From the UHGV virus genome UHGV-1407433: 25,186 bases of DNA; one strand, written 5' to 3'. Source of the stretch: a virus. The position numbers were made by a program, and so were the translations under genes. This document shows positions 1 to 19,141 of this stretch, one piece after another (positions within the stretch are counted from its first letter, which is position 1; the number at the start of each line of letters is the position of its first letter). The notes beneath the pieces were generated by a model that was not told where the DNA came from, ran no database searches, and saw nothing but the letters and a program-made list of their open reading frames with translations.

Positions 1-530
1 GTAGAGCCGGTCACACACACCGCTGCGCCTAATTTTGCTCCCTCTCCCAAACCAAGTTTTGTGCGAGCGTCTGCGGCATTCGTTGCCCCGGTCCCGCCGT
101 CAGCGATTGCAAGCGCACCATTGCTCCCTTTCTGCGCAAGTTTACCGATGCCTGGGATGGTTACGGCGGTGCCGTTGATGGTAACTGTGATGCTTTGGTT
201 TGCTGAGGTGGTGGCGAACGTCTCCCACGCGCCAATATTCTCGTCGTACTCTTTGATGAGCTGTGACATGGCCTGCGCCAGGCCGTCGACTGAGATATTG
301 TCCGACACAAGGATTCCATACTTCTGGCCGCTCAGCGCCGGGGAAACTGCTGGCGTAACCGTCATTGACGTGGCGCTGTTCACGGATGAAATCTGAAACA
401 GCTGCACCGGGTTAGACATCACGATAATCGTCTGGCCAGCGCGGACCTGGCTGGCGGGAGCTGTCCAGTTTGTGCCGGAGCCGGTTGCGGTATTTCCGTT
501 AATAGAGATAGTTCCGGTGCTATAAATCAT
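1..530 (-). CDS. side tail fibre protein, N-terminal part (3' end lies beyond the left edge of the window)
   Basis: Absent from the ORF track because it has no stop in the window. ATG at 530..528 follows AGGAG (540..536), and the frame stays open to position 1. Translation: MIYSTGTISINGNTATGSGTNWTAPASQVRAGQTIIVMSNPVQLFQ...ALAIADGGTGATNAADARTKLGLGEG. The GGTGAT..A..AR..LGLG motif and the position downstream of J are typical of phage tail fibres. Confidence 0.8.
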   Translation of the reverse strand, partial: MIYSTGTISINGNTATGSGTNWTAPASQVRAGQTIIVMSNPVQLFQISSVNSATSMTVTPAVSPALSGQKYGILVSDNISVDGLAQAMSQLIKEYDENIGAWETFATTSANQSITVTINGTAVTIPGIGKLAQKGSNGALAIADGGTGATNAADARTKLGLGEGAKLGAAVCVTGS

Positions 531-1271: not shown

Positions 1272-1304
1272 AAGAAAACCACGCGCGAAGCGGGGTTTTT
1301 GTTT
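1272..1304. terminator. bidirectional intrinsic terminator between J and the lipoprotein gene
   Basis: The stem is AAAACCACGC / GCGGGGTTTT with one mismatch and loop GCGAA. It is flanked by an A run on one side and a T run on the other, so both convergent transcripts end in a U tract. Confidence 0.75.
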
Positions 1305-4300
1305 ATTCAGAGAATGAACCTGAACCGCGCGACACTATGACGGTCGGTGAGTTTATATACGCACCCATACCATTTTGAGCAGATACTCTAATTTTCACTG
1401 TAACCCACCTGCTATATACTGCTGATGAGTGCATCACAAGGCGCTCGGTGCCATCAACGGAAAGATTTTTCTCTGAACCGTTAATGTTTATTGTACACCC
1501 ACCAAAACCTTTTACGTTTGCCATAACGCAGATATGTCTGCTATGTGCTGCGTCAGATGTGTCATTGTATGTGATTGTTTTTTCGAGTACCCCATTATTT
1601 AATCTACTAACGTCAGATCCTGTGTACATGTTTGCAACATCACCGATAAACGAACTTGCTTCCACTGTTCCAGTAAATCTACCGTTGGTTGCATACACTG
1701 TACCTGTGAAAGATCCGTTGCTAGCGTATACAGTACCTCTGACAGTTACGTTGTTGAATTCAGCATCTCCAGCTTTATTCAACTTCCAGCCAGCAGAACC
1801 AGCAACATAATTGTTCGACTGGATAAAATTACCAATCTTTGCGTTGCTGATAGTGCCGTCCTGGATGAAACTGTCCCGGATGAATGTCTGCCCGTTCTGG
1901 ATCACAAACGGTAAAGCCACGCTATTTCCGGCTGCCGTGGTGACGGCGAAGCGATCAGCCAGGAAGATAACCTGCGACTGCATGCCGGATGGCGTATTCT
2001 CCACGCCGATACCCATCCCCGCGGCGTAATACTGCCCGTTGCTGGAGACACCAACCTTGATGTTGTACATCGCGATGAGGTCGCCGTTTACGTTCGCTAT
2101 AGCCTGAGCGTTGGTGGTGATGGCTGAGGTATGCCCGTTCACCGTAGCCGTAATGCCGTTTATCTGCGTGGCCGTTGCCTGCTGATAGTCGGAGAACGTC
2201 TGATTCAGGCTGTTTATGGATGCCTTGTTGCCGTTGACATCCGTCTGCAGGCTCAGCAGAGAGCGCGCCGTTGCCTCCTTCTCGTTAACGATTACCTCAT
2301 CAATACGATCCAGCTGCGCACTGTTACCGGCGACCGTCGCGGAAAGCCTTTTGCGTGTGGCCACCTGCGCCAGCCCGTTCTGGATAATGGCAATGGCTGA
2401 GTTCTTGACCCCGCCCGTCATGCCGTCCATAGACACGCTGATGCTGTCGATTCGCTGGCCCAGCGCGGTATCAGCCGTTGCGACGGTCTGCTCAAGATCT
2501 GATAGAGAGGAAGATACATCACCGACCGTGCTCGAAAGCTCATTAACACTGGTCTGAACCTGCCCAATGTCCTGCGCGTTTTTTGCGATTTCCTGCGCCT
2601 GGAGCTCAAGTTCATCGTTGGCCTGTTTGATGTCGTCAGCCATGCCAGCAATTTTTTCATTGCTGTCCACCGCGTTCTCGATCAGGTCTTTGAACGTATC
2701 GGAGTCTTTAATTTCCTCCAGAATCACATCTGTGATATCGGAAACATCGATGCTGGCCTGTCCTCGCACCCATTCTGTGTACCCTGATTCGTTGCCGCTG
2801 CGGTCCACCAGCTGCGCGCGGTACCAGAAAATCTGCCCAGCCTTAAGGCCCATCTGCTGATATTTGCGCTGCGGGTAAGGCACATCGGCCAGCAGCATGG
2901 CATCGTCTTCAGTACCGGTCAGGCTGTACTGAATTTCCGTCTTCAGCGTGTCGTCGGTATTCGCCTGGAATCCCCAGTTCAGCTCGATACCGAACACCAC
3001 GTTTTCAGAGGCGATAAAGCCAACCGGCTTCGGTGGATTGCCCACTTTACCCGTCAGCGTTTTCTCTTCTGAATAGCCCCATCCGGATGAAATTTCTGCG
3101 GCATTGATTGCGCGCACCCGCACCAGGTAGCGCCCGGCATAAATCCCCGGGACGTCGAATGACGTGGTGGAGGTGCGCGGCACGTTAACCCAGTTCCCGT
3201 CGTTGCGGCGCCATTGCGCTTCATAGGCGATAGCGTTCTGCGCCTGGTCCCAGCTCACGCGCATTGTTTCGACGCTGATATTTTGCTGAACCACGGAAAA
3301 CGAGCTGATCACGATATTCGCAGGCGGCGACTGGTTGCCCGGCGGGATCACGCTCACCGGCCGTTGGTCAATGATGGCTCCGGTATCGATACGGGCATAT
3401 TTATCCGGGTCGTGCCATGCGCCGGTAATCGAGAAAGTGCCATCATTGTTATCGGAAACGCTGACAACACGATACTGCTGCGCGTAAAGCTCGTCAGATT
3501 CAACCACCCAAACAGCTTCGGCCTGTGGCGTCTCACTGTATGCCGTGGTGACTGTGACTGATTCCCCGTTCACGGCCTGAATGGTCCTGCTCTGCGACGC
3601 TCCGGAAGGCAGGTTGAGAATAAGGCGATCACCTGGTGCTGCATCAGCTACGCGGTCAAGTTTGATAACGCGACCGTTAACGGCGCTGATGCGGCCGCCC
3701 ATAACCTTTCCGGAAAGCAGCTCGTCTGCCACGGCGATGATGTAGCCCGGCTGCGGAATGTTTCCGTCCAGCCCGACATCAAACGAAACAACGCGATCCT
3801 TGTTATTGGTGAGAATACCCCAGCGCCCCTTTCGGTTCGCCTCTGACTGCCTGGTGCAGCCGATGGCTGTCATTTCCAGCTGATTGAAGCCGTACCGCGC
3901 CACCAGCGCCTGCTCAAATACCGGCTCCATCGCGTCGGCATAAGCGTTACCCGGGTCTGACCATGAAACCAGCGCTGTGGTGTAGCGGCTTTTGGTGGTG
4001 CTGCCCGAATAGGTAAAGCGCCCATTAACCACGTTTGCACGCGTGTAGCTGTAATCCACATCGCGGGGCATATCCGCCAGCGCAACGATTTGATCGCCAC
4101 CCCAGTACGTCATGCCCCGGAATATCGCCGCAAAATCACGTAACACGGTATAGGCGTCATTCCTCTCCTGCACGTACACGTTACAGGTATAGCGAGGCTC
4201 AGTGCCGCTACCGCCTTTACCATCAGGAACCGGCTGATCGCAATATTGCGCGACCTGATAAAGCGTCCATTTATCAATATTGGCCGCCGTCAGGCGATTG

Positions 4301-5193
4301 CCCAGCCCAAAGCGGTCGCTCACCACCAGATCGTAAAAAATCCAGGCTGGATTATCCGTCCACGCCCACTTAAACGCCCCTGTCCATGTGCCGCTGTAGG
4401 TGCGGGTCTCCGGGTCATACGTATCCGGAACGCGGATTACACGCCCTCGCGGTTCGCAGGATATTTGCGGGATAGAGCCGTTAAACTGGCTTGAGTCGAA
4501 TTCGATGTACAGCAGCGCGGTATTTGGATAACGCAGTTTGGCGTCAATAACCTCTGTGTAGCTCTGCAGCGTCATCGTGTCGCCAATTTTCGCGCTGTTG
4601 GCATCCGCCGTAAGCTTACGCAGGCGCACCGTCCATGTACTGCCTGCCTGTGGTAAATCGATACGATGGCTGCGTTCGTAGCCGGAAGTTGTCTTGCCGG
4701 TTACGCTGGTATTAAGTACCGTCTGCCAGGTGCCGCCATCGGTCTGCAGATCAATAGCGTAGTTAATTGAATAGCCAACCAGATCGCCATCATCCTCCTG
4801 TTTAAAAAGCGATGGCCACTTGAGGCGCAGGCGAACGGCTGACAGTTGCGTGTTGGTAAAGGTATGTGTCCAGCCGGTGGTGCTTGACACTTCGGTGCCC
4901 ACGCTGATTTCATTTTCTGTGCCGGGGATACCCTGAATATATTTTTGTGCCTGAGTCCCCGGACGAAATTCCCACGCCACGCCACTGAAGTTTTGCGATC
5001 CGTCTGCATTCTCCAGTGGCGTGCCATCGAGATAGATATCCTTCGCCGTCAACTGCCCTGCAAATTCGCCCTCTCCCAGTGCAACAAGAATTTTGGCTTT
5101 CGCTACGGACTGGAGATCGTCTGGTTGTTCAGTCGGGGTGCGTGAACTGGAGCTGCCGCCCTTGCGGCCTCTAATCGGAGTAGATGTAGCCAT
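1303..5193 (-). CDS. J: tail tip / host specificity protein J (central tail fibre)
   Basis: 1296 aa. The N-terminal two-thirds are collinear with lambda gpJ as recalled (YPNTALL, KWxLYxxxQYCDQxVPDG, FN3-like region). A long coiled-coil segment follows, then the conserved YYAAGMGIG..QVIFLADRFA block and a divergent C-terminal receptor-binding end. Confidence 0.95.
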   Translation of the reverse strand: MATSTPIRGRKGGSSSSRTPTEQPDDLQSVAKAKILVALGEGEFAGQLTAKDIYLDGTPLENADGSQNFSGVAWEFRPGTQAQKYIQGIPGTENEISVGTEVSSTTGWTHTFTNTQLSAVRLRLKWPSLFKQEDDGDLVGYSINYAIDLQTDGGTWQTVLNTSVTGKTTSGYERSHRIDLPQAGSTWTVRLRKLTADANSAKIGDTMTLQSYTEVIDAKLRYPNTALLYIEFDSSQFNGSIPQISCEPRGRVIRVPDTYDPETRTYSGTWTGAFKWAWTDNPAWIFYDLVVSDRFGLGNRLTAANIDKWTLYQVAQYCDQPVPDGKGGSGTEPRYTCNVYVQERNDAYTVLRDFAAIFRGMTYWGGDQIVALADMPRDVDYSYTRANVVNGRFTYSGSTTKSRYTTALVSWSDPGNAYADAMEPVFEQALVARYGFNQLEMTAIGCTRQSEANRKGRWGILTNNKDRVVSFDVGLDGNIPQPGYIIAVADELLSGKVMGGRISAVNGRVIKLDRVADAAPGDRLILNLPSGASQSRTIQAVNGESVTVTTAYSETPQAEAVWVVESDELYAQQYRVVSVSDNNDGTFSITGAWHDPDKYARIDTGAIIDQRPVSVIPPGNQSPPANIVISSFSVVQQNISVETMRVSWDQAQNAIAYEAQWRRNDGNWVNVPRTSTTSFDVPGIYAGRYLVRVRAINAAEISSGWGYSEEKTLTGKVGNPPKPVGFIASENVVFGIELNWGFQANTDDTLKTEIQYSLTGTEDDAMLLADVPYPQRKYQQMGLKAGQIFWYRAQLVDRSGNESGYTEWVRGQASIDVSDITDVILEEIKDSDTFKDLIENAVDSNEKIAGMADDIKQANDELELQAQEIAKNAQDIGQVQTSVNELSSTVGDVSSSLSDLEQTVATADTALGQRIDSISVSMDGMTGGVKNSAIAIIQNGLAQVATRKRLSATVAGNSAQLDRIDEVIVNEKEATARSLLSLQTDVNGNKASINSLNQTFSDYQQATATQINGITATVNGHTSAITTNAQAIANVNGDLIAMYNIKVGVSSNGQYYAAGMGIGVENTPSGMQSQVIFLADRFAVTTAAGNSVALPFVIQNGQTFIRDSFIQDGTISNAKIGNFIQSNNYVAGSAGWKLNKAGDAEFNNVTVRGTVYASNGSFTGTVYATNGRFTGTVEASSFIGDVANMYTGSDVSRLNNGVLEKTITYNDTSDAAHSRHICVMANVKGFGGCTININGSEKNLSVDGTERLVMHSSAVYSRWVTVKIRVSAQNGMGAYINSPTVIVSRGSGSFSE

Positions 5194-5204
5194 ATTGCGC
5201 CCAT

Positions 5205-5229
5205 AAAAAAGGCCACCCTGAGGTGGCCT
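5205..5229 (-). terminator. intrinsic terminator-like hairpin between I and J
   Basis: On the minus strand, AGGCCACC-TCAG-GGTGGCCT forms an 8 bp perfect stem followed by TTTTTTAT. Confidence 0.6.
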
Positions 5230-5245
5230 GAAAGGAGGTTTTTAT

Positions 5246-5836
5246 TTATTGCTGGTCTTCGACATAAATCCCGGCAGAAATAATCGCACCGCCGATTTGC
5301 CGACGACCATAAAGAAGCGGTACCGGATAGCCCTGCGCGGCGGTGTTGGTGACTCCACCGAACGCGTATGAGGCGCGGTTATCTGAACTCTGTTTGCTGG
5401 CCAGCCCCGCTGGTTGAGGGGAAAGCATCTGAACAACCCCGCCAATCATCATTGCGGCACCGAATTTGTATAAGAATGGTGATGCCGCAGCCCAGGGTGT
5501 GAAATTAAGCACCGCCCCAACGGCAACCAGAACTGCACCAAGTATTGTCTGGAGTAATCCGGCCTTTTTGCTCCCGATAATCACCGGGACAATGCGAATG
5601 ACATCGCCGGTGACCGGGTAACCCAGGTCATCAACACCAATATTCTTTTTCCCTTTGAATACTGAATAAGTGAGACCACGGCGTTGGCTGGAAATCATAA
5701 ACTGCTCAAAGCCCGGTATAGTCTTTGCCAGCGCAACACTCGCTTCGTTCACGCGGGAAATCAGGCGATGGTGAACTTTACCGAATGTTTTCCCGAGCAC
5801 GCCGCCAAGCTCAATGCGGGTCATTACTTCCTGCAT
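5246..5836 (-). CDS. I: tail assembly protein I
   Basis: It follows K with overlapping stop and start codons. It has a ubiquitin-like N-terminus, a Gly/Ala-rich hydrophobic middle and a C-terminal YG..xxGG motif, as in lambda gpI. The start is ATG 5836 or ATG 5824 (TAATG overlap with the K stop). Confidence 0.85.
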   Translation of the reverse strand: MQEVMTRIELGGVLGKTFGKVHHRLISRVNEASVALAKTIPGFEQFMISSQRRGLTYSVFKGKKNIGVDDLGYPVTGDVIRIVPVIIGSKKAGLLQTILGAVLVAVGAVLNFTPWAAASPFLYKFGAAMMIGGVVQMLSPQPAGLASKQSSDNRASYAFGGVTNTAAQGYPVPLLYGRRQIGGAIISAGIYVEDQQ

Positions 5837-6555
5837 GTTTCACCTGCCATTACATCTTTATAGCGAACGATCTTCATTGTGCGCTCCTGCCAGTATCCGC
5901 CATAAGGAACACGTTGACTCAGATGCCCGTAAAGATGGTGCAGCAGCATGTTACCCTCCAGTAAAATCCCGGCATGATTCCACTTATCGGCCTGCACCTG
6001 CATGATGACGAGGTCCCCTTCCTGAGGCGGACCATCAAACTCCCTGAATCCGCACTCGTACCAGCACTCCTGATAGAAATTGTCCGGGTAGTCGTTTTCC
6101 CACCAGGGATAATCCACCCGGTAATCGTGGAGCTCGATACAGTGGGTCTGCCGGAAATAGCTCATTACCAGACCCCAGCAATCGAAGTGGCCAAGCACGA
6201 ACGGACGCTCCAGCAATGGCAGCTCCCCGCGTGGCTGAATGGTACGTAAATCCCCCTCTGGCCAGCTCACAATATGCCAGGGCAGCAGCGTTGCATCACA
6301 CTGCGCCTTATCCAGCTCGCTGGCCTGCGTCGTCGCATCAGGATGGCTGTGAACAATGGCCACCACCGTCCCCCAGTCTTCTGCCGCTGCGTAATCTTCG
6401 GGGGACAGGTGAAAATGTTCAGTCGGCTCTGCTGCGAGATTACGACAGGGAAAATAGCGCTCAACCCGGCTTTTCTGTGCCACCACGCCGCAGCACTCTC
6501 GCGGATATTCCGCTGCAGCGTGTGCCATGATGGCATCAATGGTTTTCTGGCGCAT
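5824..6555 (-). CDS. K: tail assembly protein K (MPN/JAB plus NlpC/P60 domains)
   Basis: The likely start is MRQKTIDAIMAHAAAEYPRECCG at 6555, 1 nt downstream of the L stop codon (6559..6557). It carries the HSHP JAMM-type motif and an FDCWGLV...WNHAGI NlpC/P60-type Cys/His pair. Confidence 0.9.
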   Translation of the reverse strand: MRQKTIDAIMAHAAAEYPRECCGVVAQKSRVERYFPCRNLAAEPTEHFHLSPEDYAAAEDWGTVVAIVHSHPDATTQASELDKAQCDATLLPWHIVSWPEGDLRTIQPRGELPLLERPFVLGHFDCWGLVMSYFRQTHCIELHDYRVDYPWWENDYPDNFYQECWYECGFREFDGPPQEGDLVIMQVQADKWNHAGILLEGNMLLHHLYGHLSQRVPYGGYWQERTMKIVRYKDVMAGETCRK

Positions 6556-6556
6556 A

Positions 6557-7312
6557 TCAGCTCCTGATAAGAGATGTACCGGGGAAACCGCCAAACGGCA
6601 GCTCGTTGCTGTCTCCGTGCCGGAGCTTGCAGGCCGTCAGCGTGCCGTTGCAGACATCCAGCGATGGATCGTCAACCGGATTATTGTTTTTGTCGAAATA
6701 GCGCGTTCCGGCATAGTCGCAGCCGTCGCCGGTCCGGTACTTGTTCCGGATGCACCAGCTGCATAACGAATGCAGCTGCCGCGTGGGTATCATCTGGCCC
6801 TGTAAATCCATCGGACTGGAAAGCGTAAATTCAACAGATTCATCCGTCTCGGTGCTTCTGGCATCGATATAAAAGACCTTCAGCTTTTCCTGTGACGGGT
6901 CTGCAGTGGGATTGCCCTGCGGAAAATTTCTGGCGTCCAGATACTGTGCCAGCGTGTCGTGGATACTCACTTTCGCCTGCAGCAGATCGTCATACGCCAG
7001 ACAGAGCGCTGAGATCGAGCTGTCCAGGTTCGCCACACTCAGTTTTGGCTGTGGACTGGTACCGTCCGTAGTCGCTTCAATACCCTCAACCTGACACGGC
7101 CAGGCTTTATACTCCTCCCCCTGCCACCAGATGGACTTCGCCGGAAGTTTATTCTCATCCCCGCCTGCAGCCTCAATCTCTTCCGGGGTATGCGCGATAT
7201 TATGTGCGTGGAAGCGGAGTACATCTGACATACCGAACGCTGTGCCATCGACAGAAAAAAGCCGGACTTCATTGCCCGGCTCGAGTTTTTGATAATCAGC
7301 ATTAAGACTCAT
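6557..7312 (-). CDS. L: minor tail protein L
   Basis: Its position, size (251 aa) and C-terminal Cys cluster (CSWC...C..C-type, matching the iron-sulfur cluster region of lambda gpL) fit L. Its start overlaps the M stop. Confidence 0.9.
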   Translation of the reverse strand: MSLNADYQKLEPGNEVRLFSVDGTAFGMSDVLRFHAHNIAHTPEEIEAAGGDENKLPAKSIWWQGEEYKAWPCQVEGIEATTDGTSPQPKLSVANLDSSISALCLAYDDLLQAKVSIHDTLAQYLDARNFPQGNPTADPSQEKLKVFYIDARSTETDESVEFTLSSPMDLQGQMIPTRQLHSLCSWCIRNKYRTGDGCDYAGTRYFDKNNNPVDDPSLDVCNGTLTACKLRHGDSNELPFGGFPGTSLIRS

Positions 7313-7656
7313 GGTGCAAATGCCTGTTCAAACGTTGCGGTTACGGTTATCACTTTTACGTTTTTAACCACCTTTTTGAGCGTGTCAGCCTCGACACGCC
7401 ACAGCGCGGTATCGCCGAAAGGCGGTGTGAAAATAAACGACTTCACTTTATGCCGCCGAAGGAAAGCGTGAATTTCATTCGCTGTAGTCGGATCCCCTGA
7501 AAAGGAATATTCATAGGTACGAATCTCATCATTCAGGCCGGAGCCGCTCACCTGTGCGTACCCGTCGCCGAACTGGACCTTCCTGACTGTGTCTTTGCTT
7601 CCCTCGGTGGGCTGGCTGGAAACCTTAATGCCCCAGGGGAATGTTTCTATCGTCAT
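7309..7656 (-). CDS. M: minor tail protein M
   Basis: 115 aa. VRKVQFGDGYAQ matches lambda gpM VRKVRFGDGYSQ as recalled. It lies directly downstream of the tape measure gene. Confidence 0.9.
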   Translation of the reverse strand: MTIETFPWGIKVSSQPTEGSKDTVRKVQFGDGYAQVSGSGLNDEIRTYEYSFSGDPTTANEIHAFLRRHKVKSFIFTPPFGDTALWRVEADTLKKVVKNVKVITVTATFEQAFAP

Positions 7657-7661
7657 AACTG

Positions 7662-9971
7662 TTACCTGCGATTGGTCGCATTCCAGATAAGCCCACCGGG
7701 CTGGATTGCCCTGGCGATACCATCGTTGACAGATTTGTTAATCACCTGCTGATACGCCTTACCCAGCCTGTCTCCGTCGTTTTGCTGCTGTGCGTTACCG
7801 GAAGCATTCTCGACCGTCACCGGGGCATATACACTGACACCGAAAGGTGCTGCAGCCGGGCCTGTACCACCGCCCCCGACATACCCACCCGTGGCATACC
7901 CTTTCATCATCCGGTAAAGATTGCCGACGCCGATCCGGCTGGTAGCCTCTTTGGTGAAAACAAATTCACCACGGTGAACGACACCTGCAGGTTCATATTT
8001 CCCGCCTGAACCGGTATAACCGCCACCTGCAAATCCCAGCGCGGTTGTCGCTGAATCCACCAGGCCTACCATCGCCTGTTTCAGCAGGATCTGTGTCAGC
8101 ATGGAGAGCGTGGAGCGGGTGAAGTCAGCCCAGTCAGCCTTTCCGCGCGTCAGCATGTCAGCCATATTTTGCCCGATGCCATCAAACGCACTGGTGGCAG
8201 CCGACTTCATCTGGCCATAAGCATCTGAAGCAGAATCAACATAATCTGCCCATGCGGATTTGGCTCCGGACTGCCAGTCGTCCCGCAGCTTATCCTGCTC
8301 GGCGTAATACGCCTGCAGCGCCTGCAGCTCATTCTGATAACCAGCATCGTTCTCCGAACCACCACCATTTTTCCAGCCCTGAAGAAGCTGGGCCTCTTCA
8401 TTGCGACGTTGTGCTGCACGACTGCTCATACCAGCACTTTCCGCAAGGGCTCGGGTTTTCTCGCCGATCTGCGTGACGTATTTTTGGGACGTATCCTGCA
8501 GGCGATTAAGCCGCTCCTGCGCCACTATCTGATCGCCGAGCTTCGCATTCAGCTCCGCACGGGAAAGCACCTCACTTTTACTGGCCAGCAGGGATTTTTC
8601 CTCAGCAGAAAGCGTTCGGGTCTTCGCGGCCTCTTCCAGAACCGTAAAGCGGGACTGCTGACGCCACAGCTCCTGACGCTGCTGGCTGATGGTGTCATTG
8701 ATGCTCTTATGCTCCTGCAGGGTGCGCAGCTGTGTCTGTAGCTCCAGCGTCTGGGCACTGGCCGTATCGGTGGCACGGGCACCTGCGGGGGTTCTGATTG
8801 CCGGGGTCTTCTTCGGCTTTTTAAGGGTGTCTTCGTACTCTTTTTTCGCGGCGGCCAGGTTGATGTTGTAGTCAGCCTGGAGGATCCGCCCCTCTTTCAG
8901 AGCCTTATTGAGCTCGCTCTGCCTGGCCGTGTATTTCTCAAGGGCAGTTTGGGTTTTGGCATAGTTGGCCTGAGCCTGCGCGGCATATTTCTGACGATCG
9001 GACTCTGCGACCGCTTCACGGGAAGCATTCTCTTCGTTCGCTTTGGCAATACCAGCCTGCTGCTGCGCCATATCCAGCGCAAGCCTGGCCGTTTCACGAT
9101 CATTCCAGAACCGGGCGCGGGCCTCATCATTCACATAATGATCGCCTTTACGCAGATTCCAGATTTCATCAGCCTTTTTAAACGCGGCCTGGGCTTTTGC
9201 CACCATCTCCTGGGCGGTGTCAGGTCTGCCAATATCAAGTGCAGCATCCCACATCGACTTGAAGGCACGCTTCAGGGAATCCGCTGAAGACTCAATCGTC
9301 CCCATATTGTCGCGGATGGCCTTGGTCTGATCGTTGAATCCGGCAGTAGCAGCCTGATTAGCCGCCTGCAGTGCGCCAGCCTCATCACCGGCACGCTGCA
9401 GCTGTGCCACATGGGCAATCTGTTCGGCCGTAACGTTGTGGAACTGCTGAGCCATCGCGATCAGGCCTGATGTAGGGTCAGTAGTGAGCTTGCCGTATGC
9501 GGCTGCGACTTTTTCCACCGGCACGCCGGAGGCATCAGTAAATCGCGCCACCGCCTGGCTCATTTCATCAAAGCGCGAACTCGCGCCCACCCCCGCGTTG
9601 ATAAGCTCGCTCAGGGCTTCGCTGGTCTGATTGAACGTCAGCCCCGCTGCCTGGCCGTTTCGTGCCAGCGCCAACATACGATCGGCAGTCAATCCGGCCG
9701 TGTTCCCCGACAGTACCAGCGTTTTGTTGAAGTCAGATAGTGTGGATGAGCCCTGGTACCAGGCATAGAACAGCGCACCCGTTGCGGCGGACAGCGCACC
9801 GATGCCGACCATCAACGGTGAGATCGTACCCAGTAAGGCCCGGAATGTTGGTATTATCCCGCCAAAGGAGTCCTTAACCTGACCGCCCTGCTGAAGCAGA
9901 ATCAGCCATGGGTTCTGCCCGCCCGCTAGCTGCGTAGCTATATCGGTAAACTGCGCCGGAAGCATACGCAT
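7662..9971 (-). CDS. H: tail tape measure protein H, 5'-truncated by deletion
   Basis: From [47 protein letters not shown] onward it is collinear with lambda gpH from about residue 60 ([31 protein letters not shown], recalled). The first ~23 codons of the track ORF (10067..9999) are only the G remnant read in another frame. The first ATG within H-homologous sequence is 9971, 7 nt after the G-remnant stop. Confidence 0.85.
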   Translation of the reverse strand: [769 protein letters not shown]

Positions 9972-9978
9972 TGCTGCG

Positions 9979-10089
9979 TTATACTGGCCTATTGAAATAT
10001 TCGAGGTATTCAATACGCTGCAGCGCCGACAGCTGGAACAATGTGACGCTGCTGCCGTTACTTTCAAGCAGCTCGCTCTTTAGAAACAT
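9979..10089 (-). pseudogene. G: remnant of tail assembly chaperone gene G (36 codons)
   Basis: Absent from the ORF track. GGAG precedes ATG 10089. MFLKSELLESNGSSVTLFQLSALQRIEYLEYFNRPV* compares with lambda gpG MFLKTESFEHNGVTVTLSELSALQRIEHL (recalled). The frame then runs into H-derived sequence and stops at 9981..9979. No G body, slippery site or T frame follows. Confidence 0.8.
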
Positions 10090-10125
10090 AATTACTCCGG
10101 GGGAACGGGGCTTTCGCCCCGGTTA

Positions 10126-10863
10126 TCAGGAAACAGTGACTTTGCAGATCGCCACAAAGTTACCGTCATTGCTCATTACGATGATCTCGACGGTGCCTGC
10201 CGCCACGCCGGTAACAGTCAGGGTATTGCCGCTGACGGTGACCGTTGCTTTTGACGGATCAGAACTGGCTACGCGGAAAGACTTATCTGAAGCACTTGCT
10301 GGCAGGACAGAAACAACCAGTTGCGTCGTGGCCGCGACAGCCACAGCCGCCGTGGATTTATCCAGGCTGATCCCCGTAACGGCAATCGGCGCGGTACCAC
10401 TGTCTTCGGCCAGCGATGGTTTGCCATTGTTGGTGATTTTTGCCGTGCGGGTCATGACCTCTTTAGACGAGATGGTCTTGCCGAGACTGCTCACCCAGCC
10501 CTTAAAGACATCGACAACACCATTCGGATATTTGATTTTATACCCCTTCACGGTGCCTTCATCGAACCAGTTCACCAGGTCCTGCTGACCGGAATCCTCC
10601 GGCATCCATGCGAGCGTCAGGTTTGTTTCACCGGCTGATTTCTGCCCCTGCATCGTTGATGTCCAGTCGGCATTCTCATCATCGATGTAGGTGTCATCTT
10701 CCGATTCAGCTGTCAGTTCTCCGGGCTGCAGGTCTTTAATCTTTGCCAGGCGCAGCCAGTCAACGTCTGAAAGCGGATTGGCGTATGGATCACCAGTTCC
10801 GGTGTAAACCCAGAGGGTGGTACCAGCACCTTTTGTTGGTGCCAGCGGGTTTGGTGTGGCCAT
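10126..10863 (-). CDS. V: major tail protein V with C-terminal Ig-like (Big_2) domain
   Basis: [44 protein letters not shown] is near-identical to lambda gpV as recalled. The C-terminal ...[35 protein letters not shown] is a Big_2-type Ig domain. Confidence 0.95.
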
Positions 10864-10870
10864 AGGGTCC

Positions 10871-11269
10871 TCACATGTCGTAAGTAATGGAATATTTCAG
10901 GTCGGCAGAACTCCACAGCGCCATATCGTCATCGCGCTGGTAGTCATAGCCCTGCTGAACCATTGTGGTGATAAGAGATTCAAGCCCCGGAACCTCTGCG
11001 AGAACCGGATACACTCTCGTCTCCATCCAGTCATCCAGATCAGAATCAGGTACCTGAGCCTCAAGAAAGACTTCGATATGCAGAATGGCCTGCCAGCTAT
11101 CGGCGTCCAGTTCTTCCCCTGTGTATTCCGCATCTGTCAGGTAGACGGCAACAGCGGGAAAATCACCCTCTTCGAGCACTGCAGGTCTGCCGTCAAAATA
11201 AATGACATCAGTACCAATCGCGCTTTCCAGCGCGTCAATAATCACCTTGCGAATATCGCTGTGTTTCAT
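10871..11269 (-). CDS. U: tail terminator protein U
   Basis: 132 aa. [31 protein letters not shown] and [15 protein letters not shown] match lambda gpU as recalled. Confidence 0.95.
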
Positions 11270-11820
11270 CGTGTCAGAATTAACCTGAGTTGGTTGGTAA
11301 GGGATGCCCGGAGCTCTTTGGGCATATCTGACTCCATGAGCTTCGGCAGTTCTTCTTTAAATGCCGTAGTTAATGGAGCTGCCAGCGGGATGCTGACCAC
11401 TTCAATGGGGTAACGAGGTTTTGAAGTCCGCCTCATGACATGCCAGCGACCATTTTTAAGTTGCTGGATAAAGCCGCCCGGAAAACGAAATGGCCCTATG
11501 CGCAGAACGCTGTTGGCCCCTTTCTTGTCCCGTTTTCTGCGGGAAAGTCGCACGCTTGCGGTACCGAGTTTAATGGCCGGTAAATTTCCCCGGTTTACCC
11601 GGATAAGTGCACGAGGTCTATTGACCGTCGCACGCTTCACCCTGGCGCGTTGCTTTACCAGTTTTCGCGGTACGCGCGTATCTTTTGATACGACTGCCAC
11701 GCTGCGGCTGACGGCCCGGTTTGCCACGCGGTTAACGGCCTGCGCCGATGCCCGCGGAACAGCCGTTTTGCTGATGCTGTTAAGGTTTTCTATGGCCTGT
11801 TCAAGGCCTTTTATGGACAT
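11266..11820 (-). CDS. Z: tail completion protein Z
   Basis: 184 aa. MSIKGLEQAIENL... and FIQQLKNGRWHVMRR match lambda gpZ as recalled. Confidence 0.9.
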   Translation of the reverse strand: MSIKGLEQAIENLNSISKTAVPRASAQAVNRVANRAVSRSVAVVSKDTRVPRKLVKQRARVKRATVNRPRALIRVNRGNLPAIKLGTASVRLSRRKRDKKGANSVLRIGPFRFPGGFIQQLKNGRWHVMRRTSKPRYPIEVVSIPLAAPLTTAFKEELPKLMESDMPKELRASLTNQLRLILTR

Positions 11821-11829
11821 ATGCGCTCC

Positions 11830-12183
11830 TTAACGGCGACGCGAAGATGCAGGTGGAGAGCCGTTACCCAGACAGATATGACAGGAGCCACAGTCATCCG
11901 GACCAATACGTTCAACCCAGAATTGCCGACCGTTAATCGTCAGCGTGTCCATACGCTGCAGCTGCCTGACAGTGGCGGTTTCCACAAACAGGGTCGGGCT
12001 GGTTCCTTCAACACGAATCCCGGCACCGGCATATCCGATATTTTCTGGATCATCGAATACACCGACCAGGGTGGCACCTGACAAAGCGCCTGACATCACC
12101 TTTGCCTCTGTGCCCATCACACCACGGATAGCGCTATCAGCTCGCGACATGGCCTCGTCAAAGAGATTATCGAAATCAGCCAT
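11830..12183 (-). CDS. FII: head-tail joining protein FII
   Basis: 117 aa. MADFDNLFD...GVFDDPENIGYAG...GSCH is near-identical in pattern to lambda gpFII as recalled. Confidence 0.95.
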   Translation of the reverse strand: MADFDNLFDEAMSRADSAIRGVMGTEAKVMSGALSGATLVGVFDDPENIGYAGAGIRVEGTSPTLFVETATVRQLQRMDTLTINGRQFWVERIGPDDCGSCHICLGNGSPPASSRRR

Positions 12184-12193
12184 GTGGCCCCCT

Positions 12194-12619
12194 TCAGACT
12201 TCGAAAGCCAGCCCCTTTGCGATCAAGTCGTCGGCATCCTGTTCAGATACGCGGATAATCACACCAGGCTCTACGATAGATACCGGCTCGTTACGCGTGG
12301 CATGCAGAGCGTCAATATGCAGGGTGGCCAGCGTTTCTACTGATACCAGGTCACCCGTTGTGGCCGATTCCGTTTTTACTTTTGCCACGTTAGCAACATT
12401 GTTGTCGGTGCTGTCGGTGCTGTCGGTGCTGTCGGTGCTGTCGGAAGCATTCTGCACGCCGTTTTCACCGTCAACTGACCCGGCATTGCCATCCAGTTCC
12501 TCTTCAAGCTCAGCAATACGCATCGTCAGTTCCTGAATGGTGCCGCTGGTACTGACCTCGCGGTTAAGCTGGGTCCCAAGTTCATTCAGGCGGGCGACCA
12601 GCTTTTCTTTTTCTGTCAT
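12194..12619 (-). CDS. FI: DNA packaging accessory protein FI
   Basis: The likely start MTEKEKLVARLNELGTQLNREV is at 12619. The C-terminal LHIDALHATRNEPV matches lambda gpFI LHTDALHATRDEPV (recalled). The central acidic linker contains the (STD)n repeat. Confidence 0.9.
   Translation of the reverse strand: MTEKEKLVARLNELGTQLNREVSTSGTIQELTMRIAELEEELDGNAGSVDGENGVQNASDSTDSTDSTDSTDNNVANVAKVKTESATTGDLVSVETLATLHIDALHATRNEPVSIVEPGVIIRVSEQDADDLIAKGLAFEV
12404..12445. repeat. 9 bp tandem repeat (GTCGGTGCT, about 4.7 copies) inside FI
   Basis: The repeats are read directly as gtcggtgct x4 followed by gtcgga. On the coding strand this encodes SDSTDSTDSTDSTD in the FI inter-domain linker. Confidence 0.95.
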
Positions 12620-12664
12620 GGGAAATACTCCAGAAAGGTGGCCCGACAGGGCCACTGGGGGAAG

Positions 12665-13690
12665 TTATGCCAGTTTGACGGAGACGAATGCGTCAGGGTC
12701 TGGCAGCAGCATCAGCGGAGCTGACTGAATCATGGTGAATTCGCGCGCCGGATCCCCCGACTGCACCCAGTTTTTCGGGTAGCGTGTCGAGGCATTGATA
12801 CCTTCGCGCTGGGCATCAGCATCAAGAATGCAGCCATAGGTACGCAGGCCACGAGCCTGGGTATTCCCCAGCACCATTGTCAGGTCCGGCAGATAATTCT
12901 TTTTGACGTCGTTTTCGACGTACTGGCCGGAGTACACCACGATGGCCACATCGCCAAACATCCCCTTGTATGAAACAGCCATACCCAGGTCTTTCACGGC
13001 AGTTTCCAGCTCAGAGTTAGAACCACGACGCGTATCCAGCTTCTTCTCAACAGCCTTGAAGGAACGGAACAGCGCCCAGCCTTTCGGATCGAACACAATG
13101 ATGTTGACCACACCGCTGGCGTTGAGCGCGTAGGCTTCAATGTCATCGGTCGGGTCATACGTTTCTTTGTCGCGGGTTGACCATGCAGCCGCACCGGCCT
13201 GGACAATGTTGTTACCAGCGCTGCGGCCCATATCGACTTCAACAGGCTCGAACGCTTCCCCGGTCATGGTGTATTTACCGCTGAGCACCGCCGAAACAGC
13301 CTGTTTCTCTTCGACCTGAGCAATCGCCAGCTCTTCATCCTTCATGTTCTGAAGGATAATGCGGCGACGGCGATAGACCGGGTCAGCGAGATTCTGCGGA
13401 TCCTCATCCGGCAGGCGGCGGAGAGTCATCAGTGGGTTAACTTCGTGTTTCGGCTTCACATAACCCGGCGTGAATTCAGACGTGCTGCCGCCACGGGAGC
13501 GGATCACTTTGCCGGAGACAATCGGCGAGACGTAAAGCGCCATATTGACCAGGCCAGGAATTTGCGACAGGTAAACCTTCTCTGTACTGAAGGGATAGGT
13601 TTCGCGGAAAAAGATACGCAGGAAAAGCGGATCGAATTTGAATTTCTTCTCATTGACCGCCAGCAGTTGGGCAGTGGTGTAAACGGACAT
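12665..13690 (-). CDS. E: major capsid protein E
   Basis: 341 aa, collinear and highly similar to lambda gpE throughout as recalled (MSVYTTAQLLAVNEKKFKFDPLFLRIFFRE...TMIQSAPLMLL). Confidence 0.97.
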   Translation of the reverse strand: MSVYTTAQLLAVNEKKFKFDPLFLRIFFRETYPFSTEKVYLSQIPGLVNMALYVSPIVSGKVIRSRGGSTSEFTPGYVKPKHEVNPLMTLRRLPDEDPQNLADPVYRRRRIILQNMKDEELAIAQVEEKQAVSAVLSGKYTMTGEAFEPVEVDMGRSAGNNIVQAGAAAWSTRDKETYDPTDDIEAYALNASGVVNIIVFDPKGWALFRSFKAVEKKLDTRRGSNSELETAVKDLGMAVSYKGMFGDVAIVVYSGQYVENDVKKNYLPDLTMVLGNTQARGLRTYGCILDADAQREGINASTRYPKNWVQSGDPAREFTMIQSAPLMLLPDPDAFVSVKLA

Positions 13691-13703
13691 AGATTTTTCC
13701 CGT

Positions 13704-13728
13704 AAAAAAAGCCGCGCAAGCGGCTTTT
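13704..13728 (-). terminator. intrinsic terminator-like hairpin in the D-E intergenic spacer
   Basis: On the minus strand, GCCGC-TTGC-GCGGC is followed by TTTTTTT and preceded by AAAA. It sits in a 67 bp D-E gap. In lambda, as I recall, D and E are almost contiguous. Confidence 0.55.
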
Positions 13729-13757
13729 ATGAATGATGATGGTTGTAGAAATGCGGA

Positions 13758-14090
13758 TTAAACGATGCTGATTGCAGTACCGGCGAACGCGTTACGTTTA
13801 ATGTTGTCGTCGGTGACGGCAGATGGCCAGAGGACATCTTCAATACGGAAAGAGCCAGATTTGTAATATGCCAGTTCCGCGCTGTTCTGGTCTGCGGTTA
13901 CAGCCAGAACGCCCACAGCCTCGCCAGCATGAGTACCATCCCAGGCGGTCAGCTTGCCAGAGGTAGCATCCAGCATGAGCGGTGTCATGGCTGGGGTGGA
14001 TGCCGTCAGTTCGCCTGGACCATACGCGGTGTGCGCCGGGTCGCTGTTACCAAGCGGCTGGGTATGTGTGAAAACTTCGGTAATTACCAT
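13758..14090 (-). CDS. D: head decoration protein D
   Basis: 110 aa. GNSDPAHTA...TPLMLD...FAGTAISIV matches lambda gpD as recalled. Confidence 0.95.
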
Positions 14091-14099
14091 GATTGCCTC

Positions 14100-14513
14100 T
14101 TAAACGGGAGTATTTAACAAATCATCAACGGAATCAGTCGATGCGTTGCCTGCTGATACTGCACCTGGTGCAGCTTCCATCAGGCGATCCAGTGCCGTAT
14201 CGGTACGCGCCTGGGCACTTTGCGGTGCAGCAGCCAGAATGCGCTGTGCGCTCTCGACCGTCATTCCCGGCGTTTCGGCCAGTACGCGAGCCTGTGACTC
14301 TCGCCCTTTCGCCTCTTCGCAGTTCAGGATCCCCATGATGCGACCGTTCTCTGCTGCTACTGCTGCAGAGACCTGAGCACTCACATCTACTGGAGACATT
14401 GCGGCAGTAGTGGTTGCGTCAACCGTGGTGACCTGCTCAGCCGGTGCAGTAGTCTGAGTAGCTGACTGGTCGGCTGGATTATTGGTCGCTGCAGATGCAG
14501 AAGGTGATGGCAT
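14100..14513 (-). CDS. Nu3: scaffolding protein Nu3, nested in frame in the 3' third of C
   Basis: In-frame ATG at 14513 (MPSPSASAATNN...) follows GGAGG by 4 nt. This parallels the lambda C/Nu3 nested arrangement. The C-terminal NCEEAKGRESQARVLAETPGMTVESAQRILAAAP is conserved with lambda. Confidence 0.6.
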   Translation of the reverse strand: MPSPSASAATNNPADQSATQTTAPAEQVTTVDATTTAAMSPVDVSAQVSAAVAAENGRIMGILNCEEAKGRESQARVLAETPGMTVESAQRILAAAPQSAQARTDTALDRLMEAAPGAVSAGNASTDSVDDLLNTPV

Positions 14514-15443
14514 AGTTCCTCCAAGGGTTGTTTTTTTGCGTCTGTCGAGTGCTTCGCGCATCACGCCGAGCGCATCGGTATTGTTAACAAGTTCATCCGC
14601 CAGCCCGTTATCCACGGACTCCTGGCCGGAAAATACTGCCGCTTCGGTGTTCAGTACGTCCTGAACGGACATACCGGTATAAGCGGAAACTTTTTCGGCA
14701 AACATCTGACGGGTGGCATCGATACGCGTCTGGAAATCAGCACGCACATCTTCAGGGAGCTTTTCGTAAGGGTTGCCGTCGACCTTGTGATCTCCGCTGT
14801 AAATCAGCGTGACCTCAACGCCGTTAGTTTTTAGCGCAGCACCATAGTTGCTGTGCGCCATCATTACCCCGATGGAGCCGGTTCTGGCCGTTTGCGTGAC
14901 CAGCCGTCGCGATGCCGAACTAGCAATAAGCTGACCTGCACTGCAGTTCATGTCATTGGCCAGCGCCCAGATGGGTTTGATATCGCGCATACGGGCAATA
15001 ATGTCAGCGCAGTCAAATGCCCCTGACACCATTCCACCCGGCGTATCCATGTCCAGCAGAATGCCGTCGACGCCGGGGTCACTGATGGCCTGCTGCAGGC
15101 GAGCGATGATCCCGTTGTAACCCGTCATCCCGGAATAAGGCTGCAGCGCACGGGTTTTACTCACCAGAGTGCCGGAAACCGGCAAGACCGCGATACCATT
15201 TGCCACCTGATAGCTGCGCGATGGTCGGGGTTCCATGTCATCATCATCACCAAACAGTGCCAGCGGTTCGGCTATTTGTCCGGCATCAAGCGTGATGCCG
15301 GAGACGGTATCTGTCAGCCGGGTGATGCCCAGCTGGCCAGCCAGTGCGCAAAAGAAAACCCGCGCGTAGGCGGGTTCAAGCATCAGCGGCTCATTAAAGG
15401 CCATACTGGCGATATGCGGAAGATTACGCAGCTCGTGCGCCAT
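14100..15443 (-). CDS. C: head maturation protease C (S49/ClpP-like)
   Basis: 447 aa. [36 protein letters not shown] and the S49 core (ALQPYSGMTGYNGI...DMDTPGGMV...NDMNCSAGQ) match lambda gpC as recalled. Confidence 0.95.
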   Translation of the reverse strand: MAHELRNLPHIASMAFNEPLMLEPAYARVFFCALAGQLGITRLTDTVSGITLDAGQIAEPLALFGDDDDMEPRPSRSYQVANGIAVLPVSGTLVSKTRALQPYSGMTGYNGIIARLQQAISDPGVDGILLDMDTPGGMVSGAFDCADIIARMRDIKPIWALANDMNCSAGQLIASSASRRLVTQTARTGSIGVMMAHSNYGAALKTNGVEVTLIYSGDHKVDGNPYEKLPEDVRADFQTRIDATRQMFAEKVSAYTGMSVQDVLNTEAAVFSGQESVDNGLADELVNNTDALGVMREALDRRKKTTLGGTMPSPSASAATNNPADQSATQTTAPAEQVTTVDATTTAAMSPVDVSAQVSAAVAAENGRIMGILNCEEAKGRESQARVLAETPGMTVESAQRILAAAPQSAQARTDTALDRLMEAAPGAVSAGNASTDSVDDLLNTPV

Positions 15444-17016
15444 CTTGCTCCTCCTCGTTTGATTTTTTCAGTCCAGCCTCAAAAGCGGCAGCGGCCCATC
15501 CCGGTGGTTTCAAACCCGCAGCACGACGCTCCATTGTTTCCCGGACCTGCTGGGCAAAAATCTCCTGATAATCATCACCGCGTTTGGCGCACTCTTTCTC
15601 ATACGTGCTGAGACCAGCCTCAATAAGCATGACGGCTTCCTGCACCTCTTTCAGCCCGTCAATCGCCATCCGGCCAGAGCCAATCCAGCTGGCGTTCCCC
15701 CAGGCTGTTCGAGCCTCCTGGAAACTGAAACGGGCTTTCGAAGGAAGCGTGACCACCCTTCTGGCAATTGCTTCTTCCAGCCAGCAAAGAAACATCTGGC
15801 AGGCCTGTCGGGACGCAACAAACTTGCGACGCCCCATAAAGTACGCCCAGGACTCGTTAGCACTTGCGCGTGCGGTCGAGTAGCTCATCTGCGAATAGTT
15901 TCGCGAAAGCTGCTCATACGACACACCAAGCCCAGCGGCAATATAACGCAGCAGGGACTGTTCAAAAGTCGAGTAGCCGTTATCGGTATCCTGCGCCGAC
16001 TGAAGGTTGAGAGAATCACCCGGCAACAGGTGTGGAACCCTTGCCCCACCCAGGCGAACCGGCGCAGCTGAGTAATAGGACGCCATTTCACCGAGCCAGC
16101 CCGTAAGTTTGCTCTGCTGCTCTTTATTATCCGCGCCGAGAATAAAGTCCATCGCCGATTGGGTATCCAGTTCACTCTCGATGGTAGCGGCATACATAGC
16201 CTTCACTATCGCGCTCTGGAGCTGGGTATTTTGCAGGGTATCGAGCATTTTCATCTGCTCCATCACGCTGTAAAACGCATTAGCCCCACGGGTCTGTCCA
16301 TCCTCCATCGGTTCGAATACATGGATAAACGAGGGGCGGCCACCAGGAAGCTCGCGCGGAATATAGGTCCAGTTCTGTGACATCCAACCGGGATATCCGT
16401 CGTCGCTGACGTAATATCCCAGCGCAGCACCACTATTATTGATTTTTACCCCAGCGCGACAGTTCCGGGTATCACCGATATTGTTTGGATTACTGACGCG
16501 CTTCGGACTGACCATTTTGAACTGAGTACGGAAAAGACGCGTTGAATCGCTGTCCCATGTCGCCTGCATGCATAATTCACCGTTAAACGCATGCATGGCC
16601 ACACCTTCACGGATCATCATCGTAAACGTTCGCTTACGCTCGGCATCAATCCCGCAAAAGTCGTCCTCGGCATACTCATTCCATGCAGCTTCCACATCCC
16701 GCGAGAATGCCCGTGAATCCTCCTCATTTATTCCCAGATAACGCCAGCTTGGTCGATAACTGAGTCTGAAAAATGACCCGACGATGTGGTCCTGGTGGAG
16801 CTGCACGGCGTTTGCCGCGTAGCCATTATTTCGCACCAGATCGTCAGCGCGGGCATTTCCGCGAGAATAGTTGGGTAGGAGTGCGGCATCTGCACTTTCA
16901 CTCGGCGGATTCCAGCCTCGCAGCTGCCCACCAAACCCGCCTCCACCGCCATGATATCCTGCGTATTCCCGAAGGGATGTTTTCCCGTCAGGTCCCACCA
17001 AAGATGGTATTTTCAT
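15424..17016 (-). CDS. B: portal protein B
   Basis: 530 aa, a lambda-type portal at the expected position between W and C, and close in size to lambda gpB. Confidence 0.95.
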
Positions 17017-17219
17017 ACGTAAAACCCTGCTGGCCCCCGGCGTCGTGATGTGGTGCCAACCTGAGATTCAAGGTCAGCAATATATTTTTTGAGATCGCTG
17101 ACTGAAGTGGCTGTAAATTCCACTCTTCGACCGTCTTTCTGTACCGTCGCCACGCGCTTTCCCATCATCAGGTCATGTAACGCAGCGCGCGCGGCATCCA
17201 GTTCAGTCTGTGTTGCCAT
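17013..17219 (-). CDS. W: head completion (head-tail connector) protein W
   Basis: 68 aa. [40 protein letters not shown]...[10 protein letters not shown] is near-identical to lambda gpW as recalled. Confidence 0.95.
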
Positions 17220-19141
17220 TATTCATCTCCAGATAATGCCCGCGCGTAATCCGCCAGGGTCTTGTTATTGTTACGGCTGCCTTCTTCCTCCAGCAGGCTG
17301 GCCAGAAGTGAATCAAGATTTAGCTGCCAGCGGGATATGCTTATACGCAGCGCCGCCAGTGCATAAACAAAGCAATCGAGCGCCTCATTTCGTCGTTTTT
17401 TGCTGTCCCAGACGATCTTTTTCTTTCCGTCTACCCATTTTTCCACCTGCTCTTCAGCTGTTAGTTGTTGGGCCTCTGTTAGATCGTAGATTTCTGGGTT
17501 ATTCGGGAAATGAACCGCTCCCGCCAGCGGCTCGTCTCTTTGCGCCACCAGCGTGAAACGGTTATAAATCTGCTCTTTTGCGGTGTCTGTTCCTACCTCT
17601 GTGAGGTAAACACCATTCTTGTTACGCTTGCGTGGCATGTTCGCCACTGGCTTTCCATAAACCGACGCCCCCTTTATAGGGATCACACGAAACAGACCGT
17701 GTTTTTTTGAGCGGTTGTAGACGATGGTGGGATCAATGCCGCCAATATCCCAGCAAGTGCGGGATATAACCATTTCGAGACCGTTCTGGCGCTTATACGT
17801 CCTGTTGATCGCTTCATCAACTCGAGCGAGAGTCGACTCATCATCATGACGACCCATAATGATAATTTTGTCGATAAGCCAGCTTTCCTCTCCCGGCCCC
17901 CATCCCCAAACACGCATTTCGTAACGGTCAAGCTGGGAGTCAATACCCGCTGTCAGATATGCCACTCGCTCCGGCACAGACGCTTCAAAGTGCTCTTTTC
18001 GTTCCGCTAAAACTTCAGCATCGGGTCGTTCACCTATTTTCGGTTCCCACGTTTCGCCCAGGGTCGTGTTAACGAAAGTTTTTCGCTTACCCGTATCACC
18101 TTTTGTTTTTATCCAGTCCTTGACGATCTGCACCCAGGTTGTGAACGGGCTATATGCGGTCCAGATGTGGAATGTAACGCTGTCAGGAGGTTCAATTTCG
18201 GTACCGGATGAAGAAAACCAGTTAAGGCCGTCTCGTGTCCAGATACCTGTTTCATCACAAATATACCTGGCCTCCAGAAATTCCAGCTCCTGTTGTTTAA
18301 TCACACAGGCATTGTGTTCACAGAGGTAGTAAACGCTGGCAGGTTCTCCCGGAGACCATTTGAAGCCAAATGGTGTCTCTTTATCACCGAATTTCAGATA
18401 CTGCTCTTCCCCACAGTGTGGGCATGGAACATGGAACCGAAGAAAATGTTCAGACTCCTTAGCAGCTCTTTCTATCTGGCACGTACCTTTGACTTTCGGT
18501 GTAGATCCGCGAATGGATTTCGGCCATACAGAACCCTCAATACGCTTATCACCCAGAAAGGTGGGAGAACCTTCTTTCTCGATGTCATCATCGAAAGCGG
18601 CGAGCTCGTCGTAGCCAGCCACATCAACTGATTTTTCACGGTAGTTTTTTGCAGCCTTACCGCCCAGGCACCAGAAACCACGACCATTCGAGAAACGCTT
18701 CATGCTCAGCGTATTGTCCCGGTGTTTTTTACCGTACCAGGGAGCAAGCGCCAGCAACGTCGGAATATCACGAATGGTCGGTTCTACATGAGACTTCATG
18801 AAGTTTTCAGCATCACCGTCGGTTGGTAACCATATTAGGGAGTTACGCTGTTTATGTTGGATGAAATATGCGTAAACGCCGAGCAACATTTTTGAGTAGC
18901 CGACACGAGCCGATTTAACGACATTCACCTCGCGAATATAGTCATTACCCATCGCATTCATAATTGCACGCTGAAATGGCAGTGTTTCCCAGCGCCCTTC
19001 CTGGTAGGCAGACTCTTTCGGGAGATAATAATTCTCATCTGCCCATTCAACTGCTGTTTGCGGTTGCGGCCGGTACAGCGAACGTAACCCCGCCCGCGCA
19101 GAGTGCTGCAGCCCCTTAACCTGACTGTTCGATATATTCAC
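17219..19141 (-). CDS. A: terminase large subunit A
   Basis: 640 aa, lambda gpA-like (641 aa in lambda). Its start overlaps the Nu1 3' end, as in lambda. Confidence 0.97.

Follow-up and report, generated by a model that had tools for sequence, protein, structure and literature searches.

Is the short reading frame between the major tail protein gene V and the tape measure gene H of this prophage the scar of a genuine loss of tail assembly genes, and, if so, what does the loss do to the element and how did it come about? The window (the whole stretch of DNA that was analysed, 25,186 nucleotides of UHGV virus genome UHGV-1407433) is the late region of a lambdoid prophage with its genes on the minus strand. 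The genes are arranged in the order Nu1, A, W, B, C, D, E, FI, FII, Z, U and V, then the G remnant and H, and then M, L, K, I and J, followed by the beginning of a tail fibre gene; ahead of Nu1 lie lysis genes, a fragment of a DNA methylase gene and several small ORFs. The nearest relatives are phages mEp237, N15 and HK225 together with a set of E. coli prophages, and the element is an mEp237/N15/phi80-type lambdoid prophage of E. coli. The features of the region are as follows.

10871..19661, minus strand: upstream head and head-tail genes Nu1, A, W, B, C, D, E, FI, FII, Z and U, all intact (full-length matches)
10863..10126, minus strand: V, major tail protein, intact, 245 aa (full-length, 100% identity to V of the prophage of E. 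coli O68:H12 strain 97.3, below the 97.3 prophage)
10106..10121, minus strand: GC-rich stem-loop between V and G, CGGGGC GAAA GCCCCG (read from the sequence)
10089..9979, minus strand: G remnant ORF of 36 codons, comprising G codons 1-30, six out-of-frame codons (YFNRPV) and TAA (sequence, ORF list)
9998..9999, minus strand: deletion junction, a TA dinucleotide common to both parents (exact-match extension against mEp237, and the same against the 97.3 prophage)
9997..7662, minus strand: H, tape measure gene, without codons 1-60 (sequence comparison, Pfam)
1303..7656, minus strand: downstream tail genes M, L, K, I and J, all intact (full-length, 99.9-100% identity to the 97.3 prophage proteins)

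A product identical to V carries the Pfam domains Phage_TTP_12 and Big_2, and at least 2040 blocks of the public collection list the exact V protein. The stem-loop behind V sits where N15 and HK225 have an annotated putative terminator or stem_loop; the copy in the window has no T-run, and a terminator scan gives no call for it. The G remnant is preceded by GGAG (10098..10095) upstream of its ATG at 10089 and encodes the product MFLKSELLESNGSSVTLFQLSALQRIEYLEYFNRPV, which is split at the junction into MFLKSELLESNGSSVTLFQLSALQRIEYLEY and FNRPV. The order of V, the G remnant and H is that of the relatives, with the remnant lying between the major tail protein and tape measure genes.

The sequence-only reading had described V as followed by a well-initiated 36-codon ORF with a gpG-like start, and the sequence as becoming H-like in another frame near residue 60. 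Both descriptions hold: the ORF consists of G codons 1-30 and six out-of-frame codons, and H resumes at 9997 in codon 61. The alignment that it had proposed for finding the junction and any microhomology maps the break to the base. The exact match to mEp237 extends on the left side to window position 9998 and on the right side from position 9999, so that G-derived sequence ends at 9998 and the sequence from 9997 onwards is derived from H only. Exact-match extension against both mEp237 and the 97.3 prophage gives 818 bp missing, a 2-bp TA overlap and zero inserted bases. The G body, the frameshift site, T and the H start are indeed absent, while the size of about 0.9 kb assigned to the loss was too large.

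In the intact relatives the break falls after nucleotide 92 of G (codon 31) and within codon 61 of H. The lost segment therefore comprises G codons 31-140, the G-T frameshift region, the entire T, and H codons 1-60 including the start codon. The left break sequence in the intact parent is …CTCGAATA^CCTG, where the caret marks the break, and the junction reads GAATA/TTTC in the deleted allele versus GAATA/CCTG in the intact one. Since 818 leaves a remainder of 2 on division by 3, G and H are out of frame, and the G remnant reads six codons into H before it stops. The TAA stop (9981..9979) and the in-frame H ATG 7 nt past it were placed correctly in the earlier reading, as were its remaining coordinates. 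This first in-frame ATG (9971..9969) corresponds to M70 of the 838-residue H protein and opens a 769-aa ORF; public gene calls on the sister contig begin at it.

The domain content agrees with these limits. In Pfam searches the G remnant covers profile positions 1-34 of the 126 positions of Phage_TAC_2, all of which (1-126) are covered by the intact relative, and no T domain was found. The product starting at ATG 9971 matches TMP_2 from profile position 17, versus position 2 in intact H, and has a complete Tape_meas_lam_C domain. Of the features of a lambda-type tail assembly chaperone, the full-length TAC domain and the T frame, which is reached by a -1 frameshift at the 3' end of G, are absent and the genomic position is kept; the tape measure gene has been deprived of its own initiation codon and N-terminus with the deletion of H codons 1-60. 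The junction itself has the appearance of microhomology-mediated illegitimate recombination, with TA as a 2-bp overlap and neither a repeat nor a mobile element at the joint. No IS element was found at the G break site in any of the 31 finished E. coli genomes with the region.

The reverse-complemented window aligns to the 97.3 prophage as two blocks meeting at the deletion. On the downstream side 1 of 9957 bases differs; on the upstream side there are 198 differences, all between 12000 and 17000, made up of a mosaic patch affecting B, C and D together with an additional 9-bp repeat unit in FI. The 818-bp gap, this mosaic patch (12000-17000) and the 9-bp FI repeat indel are the sole departures from collinearity. 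The other 30 CDSs of the window are full length in comparison with the 97.3 prophage proteins, and the same comparison revealed no G or T homologue elsewhere in the window. As judged from this alignment, the window is an otherwise intact late region with one deletion, which is probably recent because its flanks are 100% identical to those of intact relatives.

The distribution of the two alleles was studied in public collections. The intact V-to-H interval of 1719 bp is present in 31/31 finished E. coli genomes carrying the region and in 7/7 phage records. A scan of genome_contigs, viral_contigs and metagenome_contigs with a left-flank 23-mer found 42 contigs, from IMG/VR and metagenomes, and the version was intact in all 42. 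Among these 80 related records and contigs, the deleted allele stands alone in having no G, T or H start. The junction 24-mer and 21-mer were absent from scans of the same three collections, so the allele can be considered rare. An exact protein look-up placed the 36-aa product on three public contigs, and the product is also recorded from JGI/IMG. ERZ27234110 (ENA) contains a 27.7-kb MEGAHIT contig (k119) with the identical junction, which is the same as the window over 20,098 bases save for one 9-bp FI repeat unit, and ERZ1755190 contains a 777-bp SPAdes contig that agrees with the window base for base over the junction. With the window itself, three independent assemblies have the junction, and its carriers are one and the same element.

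Tail assembly in lambda cannot proceed without two chaperones, gpG and the frameshift product gpGT: the tape measure is bound by G, and the major tail protein is recruited through the T part (PMC4493119, PMC3296357). Knockout of gpG or gpT in TP901-1 gives capsids without tails, and the published chaperone mutants show DNA-filled tail-less capsids and tape measure aggregates (PMC4493119, PMC3296357). The window has lost the same genes, situated between the major tail protein and the tape measure, as the lambda G/T mutants and the TP901-1 mutants gpG::Ter and gpT::BamHI. In contrast to them, the deletion here is natural, it also takes the H start and 60 codons, and its phenotype is predicted.

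Taken together, these data make it very probable that the locus carries a genuine 818-bp deletion in the late operon, which renders the element a defective prophage or a variant needing a helper to supply tails. Illegitimate joining at the 2-bp TA overlap would have formed the deletion. The element would still replicate, lyse its host, build heads and package DNA. It would assemble no tails, because gpG and gpGT, which keep the tape measure soluble and recruit V onto it, are gone. By analogy with lambda and TP901-1, the phenotype should be heads without tails. The early region, and any intact phage residing in the same cell, lie outside the window, so complementation in trans is possible. A truncated H could be made by termination-reinitiation at 9971, which is geometrically possible because the distance from stop to ATG is 7 nt. 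No Shine-Dalgarno sequence was read ahead of this ATG, and with the chaperones absent a reinitiated H product would be of no help.

An assembly or consensus artefact, in which the 1.7-kb interval is intact in the true DNA and was lost by collapse or mis-joining of the contig, would agree with the intact version in every finished genome and phage record and with a junction known solely from short-read assemblies. However, the 2-bp overlap is far shorter than any assembler's k and cannot collapse a de Bruijn graph; MEGAHIT and SPAdes gave the same junction independently from different samples, and the 9-bp repeat unit separates the two long contigs, which hence are not copies of one record. Because the same junction came from different samples and assemblers and so short an overlap cannot mislead an assembler, it is a real, rare allele present in more than one sample, and an artefact is very improbable. 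The assembly collapse that the sequence-only reading had named as a danger can thus be largely dismissed, and its view of a single recent lesion among otherwise intact head and tail genes stands, with 30 full-length CDSs and flanks of 100% identity. The situation that it had named as contradicting a lesion, functional phages sharing this junction with chaperones encoded elsewhere, was not seen: the carriers are the same element, and the window encodes no G or T homologue. A phage that still makes tails, with the truncated H from 9971 assembling either free of G/GT or with a non-homologous chaperone encoded elsewhere, has in its favour the in-frame ATG 7 nt past the G-remnant stop, the choice of this ATG by gene callers and the intact C-terminal tape-measure domain. 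It is the least credible of the readings, given that neither lambda nor TP901-1 can do without gpG and gpGT (PMC4493119), that ATG 9971 has no Shine-Dalgarno sequence and the TMP_2 domain is clipped, and that the unassigned ORFs of the window all occur in relatives retaining G and T and so offer no substitute.

A helper-dependent variant of the defective-interfering type, packaged and spread with tails from a co-resident intact relative, is more credible than these two and nevertheless improbable. The heads, terminase, cos-proximal genes and lysis genes are intact, and the 818-bp loss leaves the genome well inside lambda-type packaging limits. The allele is found in at least three samples, and five other contigs end no more than 4 nt from the break, as expected if both forms coexist in one sample. 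However, clonal spread with the host accounts equally well for the three samples, and the contig ends may have other causes.

Returning to the genuine deletion, the lesion is a first-step case of ordinary prophage decay. Rac, Qin, DLP12 and e14 exemplify the cryptic or defective lambdoid prophages that decay by deletion in E. coli, and the window resembles them in the loss of essential morphogenetic genes by illegitimate recombination. Unlike these heavily eroded classical cryptic prophages, it has one very recent lesion and 30 other genes that are intact. As in a defective prophage, an essential morphogenetic function is lost in comparison with intact close relatives (essentiality according to PMC4493119). 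The lesion offers a clean, datable example of the onset of decay, with one deletion, the rest intact and a predictable phenotype; the allele is useful for annotation and for predicting inducibility, and it is unsurprising in itself. Later stages of such prophage erosion are represented by contigs L006, L066 and L067.

The sole unusual element of the finding is a recurrent breakpoint. Further G fragments were taken from the cluster holding the 36-residue product, with two more found by protein search, and were traced to contigs. The left end …CTCGAATA proved to be joined to five further partners in other public samples, so that the following junctions are represented.

H codon 60/61 (the window allele): TA junction at 9999..9998
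H at about codon 155: Logan SRR14004226
Interior of J: ERZ18707901
Last codons of a Pin-type invertase gene, beside yciI: NCBI assembly GCA_030717265.1
Last 22 codons of K, in frame: Logan SRR18391800
Site downstream of J: Logan ERR3328735

Five more contigs stop at most 4 nt from the G break and carry no foreign bases there; ends of this kind are expected where an assembly branches into alternative continuations. Junction types 4 and 6 were not found in finished E. coli genomes. The look-ups detect only events that keep the G start, which makes the apparent one-sidedness of the breakpoint an effect of ascertainment.

In 6/6 cases TA stands directly before the break in the partner's parental sequence. 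TA occupies 4.4% of positions in the region, which gives a chance of ~7e-9 for all six. There is no doubt that one nucleotide is reused, and TA with it. A G is found at position -4 of the break in all six partners (G-N-T-A). With each end of the deleted segments read inwards, TA-N-C is found at 7/7 ends, one shared left end and six right ends, and TA-N-C-N-G at 5/7. The shared G/C position is suggestive; it was noticed post hoc, at a level of ~1e-3 before correction for the positions inspected.

Deletions with one enzyme-defined end include those promoted by Int from att in lambda and those anchored at the nick site of the M13 and pC194 rolling-circle origins. The G break resembles att- and nick-site-anchored deletions in having one nucleotide-exact endpoint in at least six independent events, with variable partners sharing a very short motif. 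Unlike those systems, it lies at a place, G codon 31, where no recombinase site, origin, mobile element or nick site is known or could be detected.

Several causes were considered for the preference and rejected. A hairpin or cruciform at the left break is not supported, as the DNA folds have z = -0.9 and -0.3. The Pin/Gin/Hin-type invertase of the prophage uses crossover sites TTCTCCCAAACC AA CC… with a central AA, not TA, and the G site shows no half-site resemblance. IS insertion is opposed by the finished genomes, which have none at the site, and by the contig ends, which have no foreign bases. As for elements of the IS630/Tc1-mariner type, TA lies at both segment ends, namely the left end and the six right ends. 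IS630, the TA-specific element of enterobacteria, was represented by the copy of pSS_046, from which its inverted repeats were read; these begin with TA followed by AATAGCTGCGC…, with A at +2, versus TA followed by NC… at the seven ends, and no convincing similarity to IS630 pseudo-ends was found. A distal recognition motif of a type IIS or type III enzyme is not supported either: within ±45 nt no column is conserved except -4, -2 and -1. Pfam searches found no nuclease among the unassigned ORFs of the window, and Rpn nucleases are reported to act with no sequence specificity (PMC5350276).

The seven ends reading TA-N-C lie in inverted symmetry, a geometry pointing to transposase-like excision or a staggered cut at TA with subsequent joining rather than to random illegitimate recombination. 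It is conceivable, and we put it forward tentatively, that this common prophage family has a site-specific deletion hotspot in the TA at G codon 30/31. If such deletions are the work of an enzyme, whether encoded by the host, by a competing element or by the phage itself, tail genes would be cut out of the prophage in a recurrent and directed manner, which could serve domestication or defence. Exact reuse of the endpoint, with the motif at six partners, suggests a specific activity, cleaving DNA or transferring strands, that would act on a very common E. coli prophage. At their other junctions the eroded contigs show the unrelated overlaps TTCC, AA and AAA in place of TA, which argues that the TA rule is specific to the G break site.

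The left break in G at window 9998..9999 (…CTCGAATA^) is not confined to this deletion. It is nucleotide-identical in five other deletions (L006, L007, L011, L066 and L067), the right partners of which all differ: H at about codon 155, the end of K, J, a position downstream of J and the 3′ end of the invertase gene. At all partner sites of this left breakpoint, the break is preceded by G-N-T-A. Five more contigs (L008–L010, L012 and L013) end within 4 nt of the same position.

Three of the contigs sharing this break, L006 (SRR14004226), L066 (ERR3328735) and L067 (SRR18391800), carry the same prophage in a heavily eroded or rearranged form with several more junctions, among them an H–K block in inverted orientation, an E–U fusion and a fusion of an ea22-like gene with the 3′ end of V. 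These contigs may be real cryptic remnants, or else chimeric graph paths.

Natural G alleles were read at 26994..27010 of the intact relative L002 and in loci L014–L055. At a point 6 nt rightward of the hotspot, two forms predominate among them: CCTGAAGCAGCTGGAGG, carried by 21 contigs, and CCTGAAACAACTTGAGG, carried by 17. A mosaic boundary therefore adjoins the recurrent break.

The 3′ end of G lies within the interval deleted from the window and was inspected in L002 (27290..27345). The canonical GGGAAAG heptamer was not found there in this phage family; the sequence instead reads GCGGAAAAGCCC, and the G–T frameshift site is thus unlike that of lambda.

The window differs from the intact E. 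coli 97.3 prophage by 189 substitutions, all located within 12000..17000 (genes B, C and D). The C and D proteins are only 93% identical between the two, while the products of the flanking genes are 100% identical. This comparison marks 12000..17000, with the genes for the portal, the protease and the decoration protein, as a recombinational mosaic block. A tandem repeat was found inside FI:

12403..12444, + strand, perfect 9-bp tandem repeat, unit TGTCGGTGC, 4.7 copies

Both the sister contig L003 and the 97.3 prophage have one unit fewer than the window. Among relatives, FI ranges from 135 to 147 aa, which suggests that in-frame changes in the copy number of this repeat are frequent.

At the tail-fibre end of the window, within 1..60, a Pin/Gin-type crossover site (…AAAACTTGGTTTGGGAGA…) marks the point, about 42 nt short of the end, beyond which the window no longer resembles the 97.3 prophage. 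The sister contig likewise terminates in the tail-fibre region. Both observations are consistent with an invertible tail-fibre segment breaking assemblies.
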